Below are positions 5,448 through 56,779 of a DNA stretch of 64,000 bases, in pieces; within the stretch, counting starts at the first letter, position 1, and each line of letters starts with the position of its first letter. A program made the translations under genes and the position numbers. The stretch is from positions 310,001-374,000 of the forward strand of contig CP142727.1 of the NCBI GenBank assembly GCA_036630325.1. The letters are read 5' to 3'. Under the pieces are notes generated by a model. The model made no database searches, was not told where the DNA came from, and saw only the letters and a list, made by a program, of their open reading frames with translations. The stretch is from Vairimorpha necatrix. Its lineage: Eukaryota.

Positions 5448-5738
5448 AAAATTGATGCTTGAATATTTGAAACTAGCGACAACCCGAATTAAAATATATT
5501 AAATGCTAAAATATGTGGTCCTTTGAAATTCCTTTTATATATACCCAAGTTTAAGATTTAAACAGCAGGAACAATGTTTTATCAATAATCCGGAATACTA
5601 AAAAATTAATAAAATTTTGATTTATCAAAGTTTATATAATTATTTTAAAACACTTAATAAGTGTTTTTCTTAAATTTTATTTATTCTACCATATAATTTT
5701 TTTTTTTCACTTTATACATTTCTGTTATGTATTATCTT

Positions 5739-5896
5739 TTGCAATATTGCAAACCTTTCTCCCTTTTACAAGGGACATTTGCAATATGTTAAAACTTTCT
5801 TTATTTTACAAGGGACATTTGCAATATGTTAAAACTTTCTCCCTTTTACAAGGGACAGTTGCAATATGTAAAAACCTTTCTTTATTTAACAAGGGA
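5739..5896. repeat. 4 x 40-bp tandem repeat abutting tRNA-Phe
   Basis: gcaata at 5741, 5781, 5821, 5861; unit ttgcaatatgttaaaactttct(ccct/ttat)tttacaagggaca. Confidence 0.92.
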
Positions 5897-5964
5897 GATT
5901 AGCTCAGTGGGAGAGCATTAGACTGAAGATCTAAGGGTCCCGGGTTCAATCCCCGGATCTCCCA
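5893..5964 (+). tRNA. tRNA-Phe (GAA)
   Basis: Acceptor GGGAGAT/ATCTCCC, D arm gctc/gagc, anticodon arm ttaga-ctGAAga-tctaa, T arm ccggg-ttcaatc-cccgg, downstream oligo-T. Confidence 0.96.
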
Positions 5965-10470: not shown

Positions 10471-10744
10471 CTAAGGGGCGAATATATAGAGAAGAAAAGC
10501 ATGTGAATGAATATGGTAGATTTTACATTAATGAAGTATCTTATACGGGGCATGAAAATATCTGCAATTATAGGCAGAATTTAACAAGGCGCTTACAACC
10601 AGAAGATTCATGTGAAAACATAAAGACAGACTACAGAGATAATAAGCACGATAATACCACAGTATATAAAAACAGTGTAAATTCCCATTTAGGACAAGAA
10701 CATTGAAGAAATGACGTAAATGAATTTGCTCAATGTACCTTATA

Positions 10745-10950
10745 CTTCTAGTTTAACAATAATAGGTTCCGCGTTGGCGTCTCCTGCTTGTAGGAACCTT
10801 CTAGTCCTTTTCACATCTTCTTCGGTAGTCCAGAGAATTGCTCTCTGGCGTGACCATCTGGTTGTACGCTCTTAACAAGTCTTATGGTATTGATTTGTGA
10901 AACTTATTCACTATACCGTCTCAAGTAATTACGTAAGGAATAATTAACTC
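10745..10950 (-). mobile_element. 3' fragment of RLE-type non-LTR retrotransposon
   Basis: Aligns with 54640-54870 (gttggcgtc..ctgcttgtag, ccagagaattgct, gatttgtgaaa, cactataccg). Confidence 0.7.
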
Positions 10951-19559: not shown

Positions 19560-19810
19560 TGTGGTATCCCAGGGAAACCCGCCCGGTTATGAAGTAATAT
19601 TCTAAAATACTTTTAATAAATTGTTTTTTATTTGTTACAGTCCCTCTGGACTCTCTAACATGACGCTCTTTGGTCCTCTCATCCATCTCCTTTTATGTCC
19701 CCTTCCTTTTCTGAAAATATATTTATAGTAAATTTTGTTCATGAAAATTCAATGAGAGTTTTGACAGGGAGAGAAATAAAATAAATGTTGAAGACTAACA
19801 GTCTACAACA
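19560..19810. mobile_element. Solo LTR (251 bp)
   Basis: TGTGGTATC...CAACA ends; 5-bp TSD ATAAT (19555-19559, 19811-19815); first 9 nt match the Gypsy LTR start. Confidence 0.6.
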
Positions 19811-24648: not shown

Positions 24649-24734
24649 TAAACGATTCATAAAAACTTATTTACGGTAGACTTATTTAAAGGGAATGTGG
24701 TTTAATTGTCTGCTAGTAAATTTGCAAATGTAAT

Positions 24735-24972
24735 TGACATATCCTAATTCGAAGTATGTCTCTAAAATATTTTTATTTACAATTTTTTTATTTATGTTGT
24801 TAGATATAGGGTTCTTCCCTGTGATTGTTTTCTGTTTAGTTCGTCTGGTGTTCATCGTTGTTGTTGTTTATGTATGGATAAGGGCTGAAATTATATTTAT
24901 AGTTTTATATGTTTGTTGTGTAAACAAACAAACAATTCTTCTTGTGGATCTGTGCTGCACAAAGATACCACA
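24735..24972 (-). repeat. 3' LTR
   Basis: Direct repeat of 28686-28923; preceded on the minus strand by the polypurine tract. Confidence 0.95.
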
Positions 24973-24993
24973 ATCTGCCCTTTCCACCAAAAA

Positions 24994-27900
24994 TCAATAG
25001 CTGGTCATCCTTTTTACATTGTCAATGTGTATCCATTCATTTTTTCCACTTATCTTTAGCCATCTTCCCTTCTTACTAACTACTGTGACCTTGTATGGTC
25101 CTAAATAACAATCATCAATTTTTGATCCTGTAAAATTTTTCAAGAAGATCTTATCTCCAATTTTGAATCTATTAATGTCTTCGTTGTTCGTCATTTCCCA
25201 GTTGCTTGTTTTATTATCAATATTTTTTATAGTGTGCGGTTCATGCTTTCCAACCTGCTTGTTTAAGTCAAACGGGGAATATCCGGTTACTATTGCTATG
25301 GGTTGTTCATGGATCCCTCTATGGAAGTTGATATTCAATCTTCTCATAATCATTTTCGTTACTTTCGCTATATTTTCTCCTCTGTACATTCGTATCACTT
25401 CTGCTATTGTCTGATTTAGGCGTTCACTGATGCCATTTGACGAAGGATGATACATAGGTGTTGCAATCTTATTAATGTTTTGTTTTTCTAAAAATATATC
25501 AAACTCTTTGCTGGTGTATTGCTTTCCATTGTCGCAGATTACTGTTTGTGGGCAACCGAAATCTTCGATCCATTTTTTAAATTCCTTTATTAATTTTGTA
25601 GTAGTTGTTTTTTCCATTAAAATTACTCTTGTATACCTACTGTAAATATCAGTTATCGTCAAAAAAAATGCTTTTTCATTAGGTAACGAGTGTTCGTACT
25701 CTACTATTTCAAACGGGCCAAAAATGTCCGTACTTATCTTCTTCATTAATTGGTCTGATTCTATTTTTAAGCTTTTCTTCTTCTTTGTTTTGATTTTCTT
25801 GCATTTAATGCAAACAATGCATTTGCTGACAACTTGCAAAATTCTCTTTTTTATGTTTTTTATATTGTACTTTCTTTTAATATTCTGATACATAACTGTC
25901 ACTCCTGGGTGTACAGTAAATTTGTGTATTTCTTCGATAAATTCTACGGCCTTTTCTTCATGCACAATGTATCTACCGTGTTTGTCTAATAGATATTTTC
26001 CATCTTTTTCTTTTAAATATCGTTTTATGTAATACTCTAATTCGTCGTGTGAAAGCTTAATCGTAAAGCATCTTGAAAGTTTATCTGCTATATGGTTAGT
26101 CGCACCTTCAATGTTGCGTACCGTTACGTCGTATTCGTTCAATAAAAGTTTCCAACGTTCCGTTCTTTTAGATATCGTTTTATTTTCAAAAATGCAGTTT
26201 CTACTGTCTGTCTGTATCTCTATTCTGTATCCCAGAATAAGCACTCTGTAAAATTCTAATGTTTTAATGATTGCAAACATTTCCTTTTCGACAATCGTAT
26301 AATTTTTCTCCGTGTTGTTGAATTTCCTGCTGTAATACCCTATGACTCCATGGGCCTGAAAAATAACTGCTCCCATGCCTTCATTTGAGGCGTCACATTG
26401 TATAATAAATACTCTTTTAAAATCTGGTAAATTTAGTTGTGCTGACGTTTTTATTTCGTGCTTAATCTTCTTTAAGGCTTTAGTTTGAAGTTCTCCCCAC
26501 TTTTCTTTAGTATTTGCTTGTAGCAGCATTGATATGCAAGCAATTCTTCTGCTAACATCTGGTATAAAATTACGATACCATGTTATTATTCCCATTATTT
26601 TTTGGATTTCTTTCTTAGATGTTGGGGTTGCATTCTCATTTATCAGTTTATCTATATTTTTCGTATCAATTCGTATTTGATTACCTTCTATTATATTACC
26701 TAATATTTCTAGTCGTCTTGTTGCAAACATACTCTTTTCAAAGTTTATTTTCACGTTATATAGAGAGAGTCGATCTAATACTTGAGACAAGGTCTGGTTA
26801 TGTTCGCTAGGTGTCTCTCCATATATCACAATATCATCAATATATATTATTATTTTTTCAATCCCATCTAGTATTAGATTTATTGTTTTCTGAAACAACT
26901 TAGGGCCAGATTTGATGCCGAAAGGTATTCTTTTGTACCTGTATTGTTCTCCAAATATGGTAAAACTTGTAATATCTCTACTATATTCGTCCAGTTCCAG
27001 CTGGTTAAAGCCGTTCTTTAAATCAATCTTGCTAAAAAACGTGTTTCCTCCGAGTTTAAGTAAGTTTTCGAAAATTTTTGGTATTAAGCATATCTCATCC
27101 TTGATGAATCTATTGACTATTCTATAATCAACTACTAATCTTAGTTCCTTTGTTTTCTTTTCAATAAAGAAAGAAGGACTCGCATAGTAGTTTCTGCTTC
27201 TTTCAATTATGTCGTTATTTTGAAGTCGTAATATTTATTTCTTTGCTTCTTGTTCGTATTTTAATGGGACCGTATAATATCTCAGGTCTAACTTATGGTC
27301 TTTAATTTTATCCTCAATGTATAGTTTTATAGGTTTTATGTTGATTTTTTTATAATCATCATTCTTTTTCACATATTCTTTTAATTTGTATGGTATTTCC
27401 GAGTTCTCCACAATTTTAGCATCTTCGATCAATAAGACTCGTTCATACAATATTGCATCCATTTCGTCCTCATTGATCTTATCAGCTCCTATCATAGGTA
27501 TCATATTTTTATGAACCATTACACACTTATTTTTGTAATCCAGTAGCCAGCCATTGTTAAGCAAAAAATCGTTGCCTAGAATCATTTTTACAGGTAGTTC
27601 GTTGTATATGTATACGTCTTCTTCAATTTTTTTCTTTACTCCTTCTAATTTTATCGCTACTCTGGCTTTCTTATGAGTGCGTCCTGTCGATCCGTTTCCG
27701 AATTGGAGTGTTACTTCTTCGGTTTCATACATGTCAAGTTTTAATTCCTTAGCTGCTTCTTCATTCAAAAAACTTCTATTAGCTCCATTGTCTATCATTA
27801 TTTCAATTACTGTATTGTTTATCTTTCCCTTGATTTGTGTCTTCTCAAAGTTATTCACCTTTTCCTTGATGTAATAAAAATTATTTTTCTGATTTTTTCC

Positions 27901-28806
27901 TTTCTGTTTGTTATAAAAATCCTTATCGTATTTTGTGCATTCTTCTGTTGTGTGATTACAGTGCTTGTGAAACTTGCAATATTTGTCAGTAAATTTATTC
28001 GTATTATTGTCGTCTTTTTTGAAAACGCTTTTGCTCTCGTAACTGTCTGAGTTGCGTGTTTCTTTCATCTCTTTAGCTCTGATTCTGATCTTGTTCTCAA
28101 GACTTTTCAAAAATTCAAAAGAGTCCCGATAAGTTCCTAGACCATATTCTATTACTCGACCGTATGTAAACTTTCCTAGTCCTGCGTGGAAGGCTTCGTC
28201 GAATAACTTTTCTACTTCAGCTTCAGTTAACTGTTCCATGGTTTTTATAATTACTAAAATCTCCTTGATTGCGTCATAATAGTCTTGCATCTTTTCATAG
28301 TGAGTCTGATGTATGTTTAATAATTTTCTCCTATAATATCTACGCTCCTCTGGCGGAAACTTAAAAGCTATCAAATATCGCTTGATTTCTCTCCAAGACT
28401 GATTCTTATCAAAATCTACTAATCTCGAATCTTTTATTAGTTGTTTTAGTATTGCAAATTGTATTTGTTTGTTCCATTTGTTCATATTTATCAAATTTTC
28501 AAATTCATCGCACCATTTTATGATGTCGATTACTTCTATCTGTTCTATAATTTTCACTTCTTGTGTTAAATTATGTTCTAATCCTTCTATCTTCATTGAG
28601 AAGGTTAATCCTTTTAATTTCGTTTCTTGGTCAGTTTTTTGTTTCATCTTTATTTCGTTTAGGTTCTCATCTTTTGAGCTCAAATTGACATATCCTAATT
28701 CGAAGTATGTCTCTAAAATATTTTTATTTACAATTTTTTTATTTATGTTGTTAGATATAGGGTTCTTCCCTGTGATTGTTTTCTGTTTAGTTCGTCTGGT
28801 GTTCAT
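24994..28806 (-). pseudogene. gag-pol polyprotein (1271 codons) with a single in-frame TAA at 27235-27237
   Basis: CKFHKHCNHTTEEC, MIDNGANRSF (PR), LRLVVDYR / SKIDLKNGF / YIDDIVI (RT), CDASNEGMGA (RH), H-H-C-C and DIFGP/CDNG/SNGISER (IN), all in one frame. Confidence 0.93.
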
Positions 28807-28923
28807 CGTTGTTGTTGTTTATGTATGGATAAGGGCTGAAATTATATTTATAGTTTTATATGTTTGTTGTGTAAACAAACAAACAATTCTTCTTGTGGAT
28901 CTGTGCTGCACAAAGATACCACA
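28686..28923 (-). repeat. 5' LTR
   Basis: Direct repeat of 24735-24972; contains TATA-like tataaaactataaata, a CCC motif and the ATG at 28806. Confidence 0.95.
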
Positions 28924-30130
28924 GTAATGTTTATACTTAAAAAATCTTTATTTTTTTACATAATTTTATAGGCGTGCGCTATTAAAATATATAAAACTAA
29001 GTATTTCGATCATATTTCAGGAATAATTTTTTTTATTATTTATCTAATAAATGCTCGATTTTATTGTGTAATGAAATGATGTATACAATTATTAGTATTA
29101 CAATTAATGATAATTATTTTTATATTTTGCTTAATAATATTAGTGTGTTTGAAAAATGTTGAATTAGAGCAACTAGCACATCAATGTTTTGCGCATTATT
29201 TATACGTATTAAATTTGTTTTAAAAAAGTTATTTTAGGTGGTTGATTAATACTTAGTTCCTTGTTATCCTTCTTTATTCTTTTATTTGGGAACAAAACAT
29301 TAATTTGACGGTATTAAATTTAAAAGTGTCTTATCAATAATCCGAATTAGATTACACATAATTGGTCTTTGTGGTCACTTATTTACCACGGTAGATATAT
29401 AGGAGTGTCAGTGATTTTTGACTGAGTCCAAGTGTATATCAAATTGAAGACTACTTAAAAAATCACTTAATTTTATAGAGTAAAGGAAAAATATACGAAG
29501 TAAGACTCATGATAAGGAATCTTAGAGCTATCTTATACTTACTAATCAGATATTAAGCAGTATTAAAGAACGAAAAGTTTTATTCTTCTATAAATTACAT
29601 ATTTTAAACTTATATACCTTAAAAATAACTCTCGGTTCGCCATTTTGAATTTTTTTTTTTGAGGGATATATTGAGAATATAAAAGATATTTCAATCTACA
29701 GAGCAGAATACCCGTAAATGAAGACGCAATATGCAAAGACGAGAAGGTGGGGACCCATGGAAGGTACATTTATACTTGGTTTGAGAAATTTATTTGGTTT
29801 TGAATTTATCGATGTTAAAGATCTATAAAAATTAAAGATCCTCTTGATATAGTTTTACACATTTACGAATATTATATATAAAAAAACATGAAATTAAAAT
29901 GCTAATAATCTATTAATATGGATATAATATTTTATTCGTATACTGATCAATTGATTTTCCAATTTTTACTTAAAACAGGCCAAAAAATCAAACGCGGCTC
30001 CAATATTTTATATGACGATCAAGAAATTATAAGTAAAGTAGGTTTTATTTATTAAGCTAGTGCAGAGAAAGTAGAAAAACTATTTTTTACCTTAAAAAAT
30101 TAATAAGATTGTTATAATTCATTATTTTAA

Positions 30131-30976
30131 TTATTTATTTATACTTTCATTTATCATTTTTTCAATATTTTGCACAAAATGGAAAATTTGTTCTATATCC
30201 TCATAAAATCTTATGATGTTTCTTTTCAATGGACCCATGCGTGATAAAATATTTTTCTTAAGGTATTTTTCAATATCTTCTTCAAGTATACATTTTTCTG
30301 TATGAAGTATTATTATGGGAAGTGGAATGTTATTAATTATTGTTTTAATATATTTTTCATATATCTGATAAAATTTGAGTAGATATGAATAATGTGTTTT
30401 AACATTACATTGGAACGGGATGACATGAATATATTCTATAATTTTTTGTATAAAATTCAATATAAATACATAGAACTTTATCTTATTATTCGGCAAACTT
30501 GAGTTCCTAAAATGTTTTCTCAAAATTATAAAATATTTTCCCGAATAACATTCTAAATTATAAATCTTATTGTATATTTTTTTTCTATTTATTCTAATTT
30601 CGTTTATTATATCATCATTCAGATTAACAAATGTGTCATAATTATTTGACATATTGTTTAATGCTTTATTTAATATTAAAATTTCATCTAAGACTTTCAT
30701 TGCTTGATTTAAGTCTAAAAGAAGTAAATAATGATTATCTTTTTTTTTGATCAGTTGATTTTCAATGACATTATTTAACACTCCTAATTCTTCGGGCTTT
30801 AACATACTTAGATTTTGATTAAAATATTTTAACTCTACGTCGTCCAATATAATTCCTTCGGCTGATAATTCATCTATTTGATTATTATTATAGTCAATTA
30901 AATCAAATTTATTCGAACAAAATAATGATAAAATAATACTAAACATCAAGTAAATGTTTTTTCTAAGTGTAAACAT
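30131..30976 (-). CDS. Putative secreted protein, family member 2
   Basis: VIENQLIKKKDNHYLLLLDL, ILHTEKCILEE; ccccATG; signal-like N-terminus ending FCS. Confidence 0.8.
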   Translation of the reverse strand: MFTLRKNIYLMFSIILSLFCSNKFDLIDYNNNQIDELSAEGIILDDVELKYFNQNLSMLKPEELGVLNNVIENQLIKKKDNHYLLLLDLNQAMKVLDEILILNKALNNMSNNYDTFVNLNDDIINEIRINRKKIYNKIYNLECYSGKYFIILRKHFRNSSLPNNKIKFYVFILNFIQKIIEYIHVIPFQCNVKTHYSYLLKFYQIYEKYIKTIINNIPLPIIILHTEKCILEEDIEKYLKKNILSRMGPLKRNIIRFYEDIEQIFHFVQNIEKMINESINK

Positions 30977-36543: not shown

Positions 36544-37401
36544 TTAACGTTTGCTTTTATTTTCTTTTACAATGTTTTCTATATTTCGTAAAAATAAAAA
36601 ACTTTGTTCTGCACCATTGTAATATCTTATAATATTCCTTCTTAATGGTCTAAGTCGAGCTAATATCCTCATCAAAGATAGTTCATCGATATCAGCCTCC
36701 TCTAATATACATTTTTCTGTATGATATAATATTGTAGGAAGTTTAATGTTATTAATAATTAATCTAATATATTTTTCATACAAGTGATAAAATCTAAGAA
36801 GATACAAATAATGTGATTTAACGGGGCATCGCATAGGAGCTACATAAATATATTCTAAAGTTTTTCTTGTCAAACCAAGTATAAATAAATAAAACTTAAT
36901 CTTATTTCTCGACAAATCCGCTTTTTTTATAAGTTTTCTCAGTGAAATAAAATATTTTACTGAATAACAGTGAAGATTATAAACCTTAGCATAGACTCTT
37001 CTCCTGTTTATTTTAAGTTCACTCAATATTTTATTATTTATATCGATAATGTCATATTTATTGGGGGTATTGTTCAATTCTATATTTATTATTCTGAGTT
37101 CTTTAAAAACTTCTATTGATTTACTTAATTCAGCAAGAAGTAAATAATGATCATCTTCTTTTCTAATCAAATGATTATCGACAACATCATTAAGTACGTC
37201 TAGTTCTTTGGGACTTAACGTACTTAAATTAAGTTTTAGATATTCAAGCTCTACGCCTTCCATTGCAATCCTATTATCGAGCACACCATCTTTTTGCAGT
37301 TCATGGTTGTTATTAGCGTCAATTGAATCGGAGATAATCGAACATAATATCTTTGTATTAATAAAGAAATATCGATAAATATTTTTCATGACTGAAAACA
37401 T
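36544..37401 (-). CDS. Putative secreted protein, family member 3
   Basis: VVDNHLIRKEDDHYLLLAEL, ILYHTEKCILEE; start set at aacccATG (MFSVMKN) to match paralogs. Confidence 0.8.
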   Translation of the reverse strand: MFSVMKNIYRYFFINTKILCSIISDSIDANNNHELQKDGVLDNRIAMEGVELEYLKLNLSTLSPKELDVLNDVVDNHLIRKEDDHYLLLAELSKSIEVFKELRIINIELNNTPNKYDIIDINNKILSELKINRRRVYAKVYNLHCYSVKYFISLRKLIKKADLSRNKIKFYLFILGLTRKTLEYIYVAPMRCPVKSHYLYLLRFYHLYEKYIRLIINNIKLPTILYHTEKCILEEADIDELSLMRILARLRPLRRNIIRYYNGAEQSFLFLRNIENIVKENKSKR

Positions 37402-37686
37402 GGGTTTATTACTAATATTTTTCATTAATATTTCATATTTTCATAGACTCAAATTGTTTTAAAATAGTTTTATCTCATTTTTTAATACTATTATCCTGAT
37501 TGTTATTTTATTTCTGACTTTTGACATTGTACGTTCCAACTTTAATCCTCAAATATGAAATAATCAAATAAGTTAATTTTTAATATAAAAGACTAATAAA
37601 GAAAGTTTTAAATGTACTAAATATATATGATATTTGTTTTTTTTTGTTCGTTTTATAGCACATTAATTTTTTTGAATATAAAATTA

Positions 37687-52232: not shown

Positions 52233-53644
52233 GAGGAGAAGTAGATCATAGGCTTACCTACGTAAGAAGTACTTGGAAAAGGCTTGACAATCTTTAGTGA
52301 TGTTTAAGGCAAAATTAGAAAAATAAAAAAGATGCAAAAATTAATATCTAAATATATTCATCTACATTGAAAACCGCATTTAAGTTATTTTGTCATTGAA
52401 CGTAGAGCCTCAAAACGCAACATGTCGACTAAATAACGAGAATACTGGGCGATTGTATCCTATCAAATATCTCTTTTTTAAATTATATTGCAGCAAGCTC
52501 CGCCATACACCATGGACTTTAACTCCTAAAAACCAATTTTTTGTTTCTACTTAGATTTTTTTTCTCTTATGCATTATGCAAAATTTTATCTATTTATAGT
52601 TTTTATGCATAATAAACAAACAAACAAAACAATTATTTGTGGCTTACTACAATATATTAAATTTTTTTTATATGCTTCGATGTACATGTTTCTTTTTATG
52701 TAAATTAAAATAACCACTAAATATAGTTTAGTTCTGCAGTAGACAATAGAATTTTTATAGGCATAAATAACATGATGTGTATTGTATATTAAGTTATGAC
52801 GTGTCACACTTTGTTTGTTTTTATATTTATATGTCTTATTTGCAAATATAACTAATACTCATTTCTTCTTATTGTGGTTGTATATAAAGCAGCCTTTAAT
52901 TTTGAGCTAATATGTTTATATTAATTTTTGACTTGTTAATAGAAATGTGGCAGATTAAGTTCTTTATTGATCAATTAATTTTGACGTCGTTTAGGAAACT
53001 TTAGACAAGTGATTTAAATTTTAGCTTATATCATTTTTCGGACATGTCTTTGTTCAATTTTTATTAATATTTATAATTATTTAAAACACTCACAATAGAT
53101 CTGATCGGTATAATAAATCTTTTATCACTTATAAACATCAAATACAATAAACCATCAGTAAATATTAAACAACCGTGTTGTAAAAAAATATCACATTATT
53201 TGGATTCTTTTTAAAAGCTGTTGAGACATGTCAATTAAGATTTTTTACTGGAATTCGTTAAATTGGCGGGAATTTTGACATGTATCAATTATCCTTTCGC
53301 GAAATGAAAACTAAATTGATCATATTGTTGAGGATTTAAAATAAAATATATTAATTCTTGATTTTTCAATTTTGTTTGTTGACATTTTTTTAAGTCAAAA
53401 TTTAAACTTTACTATTTCAATTATTAATCTTATTTACACAATTAAAACGCGTTATTTACTAAATGTCAAAAATTTTATAAATAAATCTTATTGATGTGGA
53501 ATGCACATTTTTATAGAAAAACTTGCATTTTTCTCAATAACTCAGTGTTTTAATAATTTTTCATCTTTTTTTTCTAATGTTTTTGTTTACTTAAAAAATT
53601 TTAAAAATTTTAAATATTTTTTGAATAATTTCACCCTTGGCTCT

Positions 53645-54589: not shown

Positions 54590-56580
54590 TTATTAGGGGC
54601 TGCTAAGTGTAGTTTATACTTCTAATTTAACAATAATAGGTCTCGTGTTGGCGTCTTCTGCTTGTAGTAGCTTCCGGCTTCATGGGCCTTTCCGCATCGG
54701 CTTCGTCTCCTCTCCTTCGATATTCCAGAGAATTGCTTTCTAGCGTCTTCTTTGGCGCAATCATTTGGATGTACGCTGTTATCTTCTTAGAAATTTCGAG
54801 TCTTGTGGTATAAGATTTGTGAAATTTGATCACTATACCGATCAAGTGATTATATAGGAAGTTATTTCTGTTTTAAACCCCATATATTAAGCCAGTTTGT
54901 TCGCAAGGACATCATACTTTCTTAACTTATCGTTTTTTATTTGCTGTAGGTTTTCTTGTGATGTGACACCTATCTCGATTATTCTGATCAATTTGTTCTT
55001 TTTACTTACTACGACAATGTCCGGGTTATTATATTTGATCTTTATGTCCGTTTTTACCGTCGTGTCTATTCTCATTTCCACATCTTTGTTGGCAACTTTT
55101 TTTTTGTACTGAGTGGTTTCTTGATTTCTTCTTAGGCTGAACTTTATATTTTTACACAGAAGTAAGTGGATCAATATAACAATTTCATTATGCCTTCTCA
55201 TGTAATCGTGTCCTTGCATTTTTTCGCACCTTGTAGCTAGATGATCCACAGTCTTTGCTGATTTATTACAATGAGTGCAGTTTATAATCGATCTATAAAT
55301 ATATTTCGGTCTTGTAGGGCACATAACTTACTTTCTGTCCTGATATTCGTGTTACCTACTTTAAGCCATAATGATGAGTTTTTAATGTCGACTATTTCAT
55401 TTTATTTTGCCCTGAACAATTTTATATGTCATGTTGCATTATTTATGTTGTTGTATTGGTAGTTAGCTGTGCCTCCGCTAACGATTTCTGTTCCATATCT
55501 TTTAGCTTATATTTTTCGAAACGTATGCTTTGATTAGAGATAAGTGAGTTTTCTTTTATGCTGGTTTATTATAATAGCTCGTCTTCTAGGGTAGATATTG
55601 ACCGTTTGTTCGAAGTCCGATATTAGTTTGAATAGCATACACTTTTAAATACTCCACTAGTTAGTCCTCTTCTAAGCGCATAACGGGGCAGGTATGCCTT
55701 TCTTTGCATGCCGGTTGTAAATAGCCTCCATGATGTTCAATGATATTCTAATGCAGAGTCTATCTCCTCAAATATCTACGGTTCTAAATCTAGTACTTCG
55801 ACATTAAAATTTATTATTGAGATAGCAAAATCCTTAATAGCTTTGTAGGTGTTCTTGCCGTTAATTTTGGTATTGCTTATCATTCTTACTCGTGACTTTA
55901 TTTTTCCTTAATGAATTCAATTGTACTATTACTTGTTTGTTTTCCCCGGGGTCTAGAACTCCTAGGTATTTATATTCGTCATCCAGTGCCATAATAACCA
56001 TTTTTGTGCTGCTGATATCGCAATTTATCGCAGATTTCTTTTCATTCATTTCATCCCGAGCTCATAAGGTTACTTATTATGTATTGTTTTGTATAATTTG
56101 AAATGTAAATTTTTAAGTATAAATTTGATTAATTTTAAATCTTGTATAATAATATGTTTAGAAATTGTATAAGATAATTGTAAGTTTAGGTTTAAATTTC
56201 TAAATATATATTCTCAGCATACCCGCGAAAATTTAGAACTGAGCGTTGTATTTATCTCTACTACTTTGATCTCAAAATAAAAATGCATTTTTTATGTTAG
56301 CTGACTTTGGGCAGCGCTTTACTTTTTCGCTTATTACTATCTCTTCTAGTATTGTTCTTTACGGTACTTTCTTTCCTTGTTATAATACATAAACTCTAGG
56401 GGCATGGAATTTTTCTTACACATGCCTTTCCAACAATAGACTTAGATCTTGTCCGTCTTTCTCATTTATCAACTATAACACAATTCCTTTTTTATATTCT
56501 TCTCGTTTTGAATCTTTCTGGATTTTTAAACACCAATGCTTCAGCTATCATGCCTCGTTAGTTTTAAATGTGAATGGTAG
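54590..56580 (-). mobile_element. Decayed RLE-type non-LTR retrotransposon
   Basis: CTHC...TVDHLATRC, RRHNE, NPDIVVV, IEIGVT, KLRKYDVLAN, RT remnant YKYLGV; many frameshifts; 5' boundary uncertain (may reach about 57630). Confidence 0.8.
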
Positions 56581-56585
56581 GATTA

Positions 56586-56779
56586 TGACGTATCTTAGGC
56601 GGAGATACGTCTCGATGAGATTAAAGGTATTTTCAAAAGTAATGCTTTTTCTATTTTTAGCGTTTGTATTCATCTTCTTGCTCACCATGCCTTTTTTTGG
56701 GTTTTCGCTATTTATAGTTTTATATGTTTGTTTGTAAACAAACAACAACAAGAAGTTTTAATAGACCATTTTTCCAACA
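56586..56779 (-). mobile_element. Solo LTR related to the Gypsy element at 24735-28923
   Basis: TG...CA, perfect TSD GATTA (56581-56585, 56780-56784); shares atttatagttttatatgtttgtt..taaacaaaca and the tgac.tatc.ta terminus. Confidence 0.85.

Follow-up and report, generated by a model that had tools for sequence, protein, structure and literature searches.

A compact Ty3/gypsy-type retrotransposon of a microsporidian whose Gag probably starts inside the long terminal repeat

Where does the Gag protein of an LTR retrotransposon begin? The window, the whole stretch of 64,000 nucleotides of DNA that was analysed, contains an LTR retrotransposon of 4189 bp on the minus strand (24735-28923). Its reading frame opens in the middle of the 5' long terminal repeat (LTR) and runs across the end of the LTR, where a primer-binding site (PBS) would be sought. 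Two questions follow: whether the part of the frame within the LTR is translated, and what stands in the place of the PBS. The first can be answered with a probability of about 0.8: the element belongs to a Nosema/Vairimorpha-like microsporidian, is young, very compact and of the Ty3/gypsy type, and has the Gag initiation codon in its LTR.

The anatomy of the element can be read directly. Its main features are these:

28923..28686, minus strand: 5' LTR of 238 nt, TG..CA, 100% identical to the 3' LTR; its U3/R/U5 boundaries are predicted
24972..24735, minus strand: 3' LTR of 238 nt, TG..CA, 100% identical to the 5' LTR
28924..28928, minus strand: upstream copy of the target-site duplication ATTAC (same 5 nt at 24730-24734)
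24730..24734, minus strand: downstream copy of the target-site duplication ATTAC (same 5 nt at 28924-28928)
27235..28806, minus strand: gag-protease ORF of 523 aa, from ATG 28806 in the LTR to an in-frame TAA (27237-27235), with Pfam protease families
24994..27234, minus strand: RT-RNase H-integrase part, 746 codons, frame unchanged directly past the TAA
24974..24988, minus strand: polypurine-tract-like sequence GGTGGAAAGGGCAGA, downstream of the pol stop, with its end 1 nt short of the 3' LTR
28743-28738 and 28728-28723, minus strand: two AATAAA hexamers in the part of gag that the LTR encodes; as candidate poly(A) signals they would mark the end of R

A direct repeat of 241 nt with 100% identity (24732-24972 and 28683-28923) resolves into the two 238-nt LTRs; its three surplus bases are a coincidence, the target duplication happening to match the bases that follow the 5' LTR. 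Non-coding internal sequence amounts to 21 nt in all, from the pol stop to the 3' LTR.

The first part of the ORF matches the retropepsin families PF13975/PF12384. The second matches, in order, PF00078 (RVT_1), PF17917/PF17919 (RT-RNase H), PF17921 (integrase zinc domain) and PF00665 (rve). It is this order of protease, RT, RNase H and integrase that assigns the element to Ty3/gypsy (Metaviridae), and the direct TG..CA LTRs with a short duplication and the polypurine tract before the 3' LTR are also those of that group. Retrotrans_gag (PF03732) matches the first part weakly, at 21.4 bits, below its cut-off of 24.1. The Pfam search gave no chromodomain at the integrase C-terminus, no family being found there at E <= 0.001. 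Gag has a putative zinc knuckle at residues 277-290 (27937-27978, minus strand) of the form C-X2-H-X4-H-X4-C, unlike the usual CCHC; the same spacing occurs in the consensus of an alignment of 50 relatives.

The sole break of the gag-pol frame is the in-frame TAA at the protease/RT boundary (27235-27237, minus strand), a position that is Glu in the relatives from V. necatrix and N. granulosis. Judged by its identical LTRs, the window copy looks recently inserted, yet it has a nonsense codon.

Some further observations concern the same locus. A search for RNA runs over 27900-29100 listed none, and the single run in which the sequence was found, X1, consists of contigs. One X1 contig, at depth 3.8, has a different letter at 27237, which makes a sense codon. 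Against the window copy, the X1 contigs also show gaps of one base in gag/pol (27036, 27365, 28251 and 28467) at depths below 5, their depth is below 1 across 28526-28827, and loose ends at 28818, 28845 and 28886 are more LTR variants in that sample. A search of the 64-kb window for a second gag copy found none. An ORF of 135 aa on the plus strand (28520-28927) is the antisense of the lysine/asparagine-rich start of gag and was taken as an artefact.

The preliminary description of this DNA placed the start of gag-pol in mid-LTR, downstream of a TATA-like tract, and had the frame open for about 40 codons across the LTR end. All of this holds. ATG 28806 is position 118 of the 238-nt LTR, and the frame continues from it for 40 codons and 1 nt within the LTR and then onward. 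The LTR-encoded peptides that had been quoted for the element and for a solo LTR are both exact on re-translation. An in-frame TAA lies four codons upstream of the ATG. One other ATG exists in the LTR, out of frame at position 233, and the ATG at position 118 is the only in-frame one before the conserved motif described below. The overlap also follows from length: read through the TAA, the ORF has 1271 codons or 3813 nt, more than the 3713 nt of the internal region, and so it must overlap the LTR. The promoter is predicted from one feature:

28845..28852, minus strand: TATA box TATAAATA at LTR positions 72-79, starting 46 nt before ATG 28806, part of a 38-nt core shared with solo LTR A at 97% identity

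The gag initiation codon is thus downstream of the predicted LTR promoter and upstream of the LTR end, which is the layout of Ty1.

The proposed course of expression starts at this promoter. RNA polymerase II would begin about 25-30 nt past the TATA box, which would leave a leader of roughly 15-25 nt, and ATG 28806 would be the first AUG of the transcript and the one used. R and U5, within their predicted limits, would be translated as Gag codons 1-40, a disordered basic stretch followed by the conserved helix ILETYFEL. The same reading would put the candidate poly(A) signals within codons, along with the terminal CA of the LTR and the primer-site position. This layout would be common to the whole element family, beyond the window copy.

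Two other LTRs in the window allow the layout to be compared:

56586..56779, minus strand: solo LTR A, of a related family, 194 nt, TG..CA, with the duplication GATTA (plus strand) on both sides
19560..19810, minus strand: solo LTR B, of a third family, 251 nt, TG..CA, with the duplication ATTAT

Solo LTR A had already been noted as a diverged LTR with an open homologous frame, as it proves to be. It has TATAAATA 43 nt before ATG 56673, from which 29 codons and 1 nt are open to the LTR end, and an additional in-frame ATG at 56688. Solo LTR B was detected because residues 100-138 of P0025, a V. necatrix Gag-protease, match there; its peptide is 90% identical to them. Here TATAAATA stands 41 nt before ATG 19686, and 42 codons and 1 nt are open to the LTR end. 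The distance from TATA box to ATG is thus 46, 43 and 41 nt in the element, solo A and solo B, and the LTR end falls after codon position 1 in all three families, a conservation of phase that is seen directly in the DNA.

In each of the three families the frames other than gag contain 2-5 stops each. When the segments were shuffled 20000 times, the gag frame was open by chance in 639 cases for the element (3.2%), 2375 for solo A (11.9%) and 764 for solo B (3.8%). A comparison of dN/dS and indel phase across the LTR families, which the preliminary description had proposed as a check, agrees with a coding function. The indels among the three peptides are in frame, and synonymous differences are present: pN is 0.33-0.44 against a saturated pS of 0.78-0.97, figures that come from just 29-36 codons in an alignment by amino-acid similarity, a procedure that tends to lower pN. 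On these comparisons of sequence, the LTR-encoded peptide is inherited and not accidental.

The LTRs of the element and of solo A are otherwise very diverged, and the 38-nt core, with the TATA box at its end, is an exception (28845-28882 against 56709-56745). Within it, TGTTTGTT/AACAAACA form an inverted repeat of 8 bp. At 52591-52642 there is a less similar copy of the core, 76% identical over 55 nt, with no ORF. The core may be a shared promoter element.

Other repeated sequences were seen in the window. Stretches of 72-74% nucleotide identity link two minus-strand ORFs, one of 281 aa (30131-30976) and one of 293 aa (36544-37425), which look like a diverged local gene pair. A repeat of 67 nt with 87% identity occurs at 10727-10793 and 54601-54667, 44 kb apart. 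Near it, an ORF at 54887-55324 codes for 145 aa, is Cys/His-rich and has no Pfam match. Repeat and ORF may be the remnant of another mobile element.

If the peptide is a part of Gag, it should be found in the proteins of related elements. Relatives were collected by a word-indexed search and by an exhaustive search with Gag residues 1-300 at E <= 0.001. The closest protein in the word-indexed search is a near-length V. necatrix polyprotein of 889 aa with 59% identity. Two full-length N. granulosis polyproteins, P0148 and P0149, are 44-47% identical; they are continuous proteins of 1273 and 1281 aa, and NCBI names the N. granulosis relatives "Tf2-6 polyprotein". A single polyprotein in the closest relatives, from V. 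necatrix and N. granulosis, places the element in the microsporidian Ty3/gypsy clade, the window copy differing by its one in-frame TAA. Scans of metagenome contigs and viral contigs found no DNA encoding the relatives.

The exhaustive search returned 147 proteins. The LTR-encoded motif lies in the first 200 residues of 37 of them, and in about 26 of these within the first 45 or so; most of the other hits start further into Gag. These N-termini are gene-finder calls. The motif, K-S-[IL]-L-E-x-Y-[FL]-x-x-G, then Y/H, then L-[NS]-S, is present in Gag of V. necatrix, N. granulosis and many further relatives, and it recurs in proteins that are 20-25% identical elsewhere. P0001, P0148 and P0149 align to the LTR-encoded peptide from their own N-termini. 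The conservation of the protein is thus observed directly, and in the 50-row alignment (A2) the columns of the motif are conserved to the same degree as the capsid core.

An AlphaFold model built on A2 has a mean pLDDT of 84.1. In the model, residues 1-29 are disordered, residues 30-37 form a helix within a 10-residue block of mean pLDDT 90, and a predicted capsid-like helical body follows. In Foldseek the model comes closest to the capsids of PNMA2, HIV and copia, with E values no better than 0.013.

A gene model from V. necatrix gives a further view of this junction. P0025, which matches 19561-19677, is named ERO1 and has about 100 unrelated residues ahead of Gag-protease. Its solo-B-like peptide runs straight into Gag. 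To judge from the sequence, P0025 is probably a chimeric annotation caused by an ORF start inside the LTR. Because Gag starts in the LTR, solo LTRs bear short ORFs, and gene models like this one can be chimeras. For the annotation of microsporidian genomes the rule would be that Gag of these elements starts in the LTR.

The proteins also carry a trace of where the LTR ends. Fifty were taken in which the N-terminal motif is followed by [LMV]-[NSIT]-S. Left out were at least six proteins that have an N-terminus off this junction pattern (P0133, P0113, P0091, P0114, P0018 and P0139), as well as the proteins that lack the N-terminal region. The residue at the LTR end is compatible with a codon ending in C in 50/50 (the background share of incompatible residues is 0.26), and the next residue is compatible with a codon starting with A in 49/50 (background 0.49). 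This pattern fits a terminal CA at the same codon positions throughout the family. On that reading, every member of the family would begin Gag within its LTR. The conservation of the junction residues V-N-L-S-S-K is partly driven by nucleotides, and hence is by itself no argument for translation.

What stands in the place of the PBS is one further feature:

28673..28684, minus strand: TTTGAGCTCAAA, a perfect palindrome of 12 nt at the PBS position, beginning at the second base past the terminal CA and forming the codons L-S-S-K

The bases after the LTR had been called the PBS region, a name they do not bear out: there is a palindrome and no PBS of the tRNA type. No TGG occurs in the 60 nt after the LTR, the first seen by eye being roughly 170 nt downstream, and the lack of a TGG near the LTR end means that there is no ordinary tRNA PBS. 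A complement to a tRNA 3' end just past the 5' LTR was likewise absent, the host tRNA compared being tRNA-Phe alone. As a primer, tRNA-Phe gives a weak gapped duplex of -13.7 kcal/mol (a value with no shuffle control) and was rejected. Its gene at 5893-5964 is the only tRNA gene of the window; directly upstream of it, at 5738-5888, are three overlapping copies of a 71-nt unit, 40 nt apart.

A fold-back of the Tf1 type was also tried and set aside. LTR positions 86-135 pair with the 30 nt past the LTR at -6.3 kcal/mol, against -6.0 +/- 2.1 in 500 shuffles; with the whole LTR the value is -12.5 kcal/mol, which 57 of 300 shuffles equal.

A palindrome alone is not rare. The 64-kb window has 101 perfect palindromes of at least 12 nt, of which 24 include G/C, and the weight therefore falls on position and covariation. 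The codons used are minor ones: TTG makes up 15 of 94 Leu codons, AGC 13 of 52 Ser codons and TCA 11 of 52.

The covariation is seen in the relatives. When the first position is L (TTG), the fourth residue is compatible with a codon starting with A in 34/34 proteins; with M (ATG) it is compatible with T in 13/13, and with V (GTG) it is compatible with C in 3/3. The 10-nt palindrome N-TGA-NN-TCA-N' is thus possible in 50/50, where shuffles, which ignore relatedness, have a mean of 31.9 and reach 50 in 0/20000. In the clade that mixes L, M and V, 27/27 are compatible against a shuffle mean of 14.8. Unambiguous residues alone divide 27:0 against 0:5 (Fisher p = 5e-6). The same test at neighbouring positions gave no such link. 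The middle residue is N, S or I, with the codons AAT, AGC and ATA, whose last two bases are self-complementary; this position belonged to the pattern by which the proteins were selected.

Both positions change together between the sister rows P0068/P0097, P0039/P0056 and P0083/P0100. A quick tree has 6 of 47 branches starred and yields one supported independent pair (seven on the unsupported best tree); with a single supported pair, a sign test on phylogenetic contrasts cannot reach significance. The covariation means that the pairing partner of the palindrome is the palindrome itself. The pattern suggests RNA-RNA self-pairing at this site, for dimerisation, priming in trans, or both.

The palindrome could be a dimerisation site of the genomic RNA and nothing more, with priming by an unrecognised host RNA, for instance half a tRNA or a piece from within one. 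In other elements, palindromes within or close to the PBS are described as serving dimerisation: the Ty1 palindromes PAL1 and PAL2, at the 5' end, mediate it, as does PBS-PAL of MMTV (PMC6844567). Half-tRNA primers are reported for copia-type elements (PMC6317226), and the comparison with host tRNAs covered Phe alone. Against this, the core of the palindrome sits exactly at the place of a PBS, 2 nt past the terminal CA; the long interval without TGG holds for this reading too; and a fixed host primer would forbid covarying changes between families. Dimerisation alone is a serious possibility, its chances falling somewhat short of even.

Alternatively, the tRNA PBS may have been replaced by this palindrome of 10-12 nt in gag codons. 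Two co-packaged genomic RNAs would pair, and one of them, once cleaved where the duplex ends, would serve as primer for minus-strand synthesis on the other. The core beginning 2 nt past U5 would give the geometry of a PBS. This proposal is tentative and rather unlikely as it stands. If true, trans self-priming would be a third mode of priming, beside tRNA priming and the Tf1-type fold-back. With a covarying palindrome at the PBS position, the mechanism of priming and dimerisation is now directly testable, and this is the part most worth pursuit.

The constraint on nucleotides at the junction also bears on the first question. The conserved "peptide" might be a mere translation of cis-acting R, U5 and primer-site nucleotides, with Gag starting at Met54 or Met71 and the stretch from 28806 to the LTR end serving as leader. 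The terminal CA and the palindrome do constrain the junction residues at the nucleotide level, the AATAAA hexamers lie within the segment, and residues 1-29 are predicted to be disordered and are poorly conserved. Other evidence points the other way. Ahead of the junction the motif shows substitutions of the kind seen in proteins (I/L/F, E/D/N/Q, Y/H), and between the three LTRs of the window some differences are synonymous. An open frame, in-frame indels and a single phase of the LTR end in 3/3 LTRs and 50/50 proteins are not what a leader would maintain. The preliminary description had allowed that other copies might start at the downstream methionine, MKQKTDQ. This Met54 is not conserved even in the closest relative, and A2 has no conserved downstream Met column. 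An untranslated leader is thus very improbable, and a start of Gag in the LTR remains the preferred reading.

Why should R and U5 be coding at all? Adaptation to short 5' UTRs had been offered as the cause, and it is a plausible one. Leaders of less than 7 nt and a CCC motif within 15 bp of start codons are described for E. cuniculi (PMC2803860). E. aedis is described with long leaders, so that short leaders are not universal in microsporidia (PMC2474625). In the element, the motif that had been called "host-style" is this:

28833..28835, minus strand: CCC at -29..-27 of ATG 28806

In 15 of the 24 host ORFs of the window, CCC begins 4-19 nt upstream, which puts the CCC of the element about 10-25 nt farther from its ATG than in these host genes; the term does not fit. 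The leader length estimated from the TATA box would be short for a retroelement and not host-like. General compaction accounts for the overlap of gag and LTR equally well. That compaction is extreme: of 4189 bp, only about 117 nt of LTR upstream of the ATG, with their second copy in the 3' LTR, and the 21 internal nt are non-coding. Candidate poly(A) signals, the LTR end that integrase would recognise and the primer-site position are written in gag codons.

An ATG in every LTR has a consequence outside the element as well:

24855 to 24682, minus strand: read-out ORF of the 3' LTR from ATG 24855, 57 aa, stopping 17 codons into the flank

It had been proposed that each LTR is a portable cassette of promoter plus ATG. 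As anatomy this follows, since each LTR combines an ATG with a TATA box and has a frame that is open through its end. But 3/3 read-out ORFs in the window soon end in the flank, after 17 codons for the 3' LTR, 12 for solo A and 7 for solo B, and reach no host ORF. That the LTRs act for the host as mobile cassettes, tagging or driving genes nearby, is scarcely credible.

The nearest known layout is that of Ty1 of S. cerevisiae. The view that gag normally starts downstream of the PBS, from which the preliminary description set out, ignores this element. As described, Ty1 has an LTR of 334 bp, its RNA starts at nt 241, and a 5' UTR of 53 nt leads to the AUG at nt 294; its PBS (nt 335-347) can be silently mutated within GAG (PMC5454406). 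As in that description, the Gag AUG of the window element lies in the 5' LTR and the primer-site position within the gag frame. The extent of the overlap differs: by arithmetic from the same figures, about 14 codons of Ty1 lie in the LTR, against 40 here, which take up half of the LTR and include both AATAAA hexamers. Ty1 has a PBS for tRNAiMet, and the window element has no tRNA PBS. The two also belong to different superfamilies, since integrase is C-terminal here, unlike in Ty1 (Ty1/copia, Pseudoviridae). The pol gene of Ty1 is expressed by a frameshift, whereas the relatives of the window element have one continuous gag-pol ORF.

In this last respect the element resembles other microsporidian Ty3/gypsy elements, such as Nbr of N. 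bombycis and the microsporidia-specific groups described in 2014 by Parisot et al. One polyprotein that joins Gag, PR, RT, RNaseH and IN is given as typical of them (PMC4202319, PMC2474625), and the relatives of the window element have one. A statement on a gag start in the LTR or a missing tRNA PBS in microsporidian elements was not found in the literature searched; Xu et al. 2006 (Nbr) and the supplements of PMC4202319 lay outside that search, and an earlier description for such elements is possible.

Another likeness is to Tf1/Tf2 of S. pombe, where gag and pol likewise form a single ORF and a PBS that complements a tRNA is missing. The PBS of Tf1 pairs with the first bases of its own RNA. 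In the window element, unlike Tf1, the sequence after the LTR is self-complementary, and its complement in the LTR, taken with a predicted start site, is no better than shuffles. Self-priming is described for the Tf1/sushi group as a whole (PMC6317226), from which the element further differs in having no chromodomain by Pfam.

The palindrome has its closest counterparts in the DIS of HIV and PBS-PAL of MMTV, short self-complementary sequences described at or beside the primer site (PMC6844567). Those of HIV and MMTV accompany a tRNA PBS, whereas the palindrome of the window element replaces the PBS and lies in codons. By this comparison a start of gag in the LTR is of a known kind, with its precedent in Ty1. 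The window element differs from Ty1 in its superfamily, in the extent of the overlap, in the clade-wide conservation of phase and in having a palindrome in place of a tRNA PBS.
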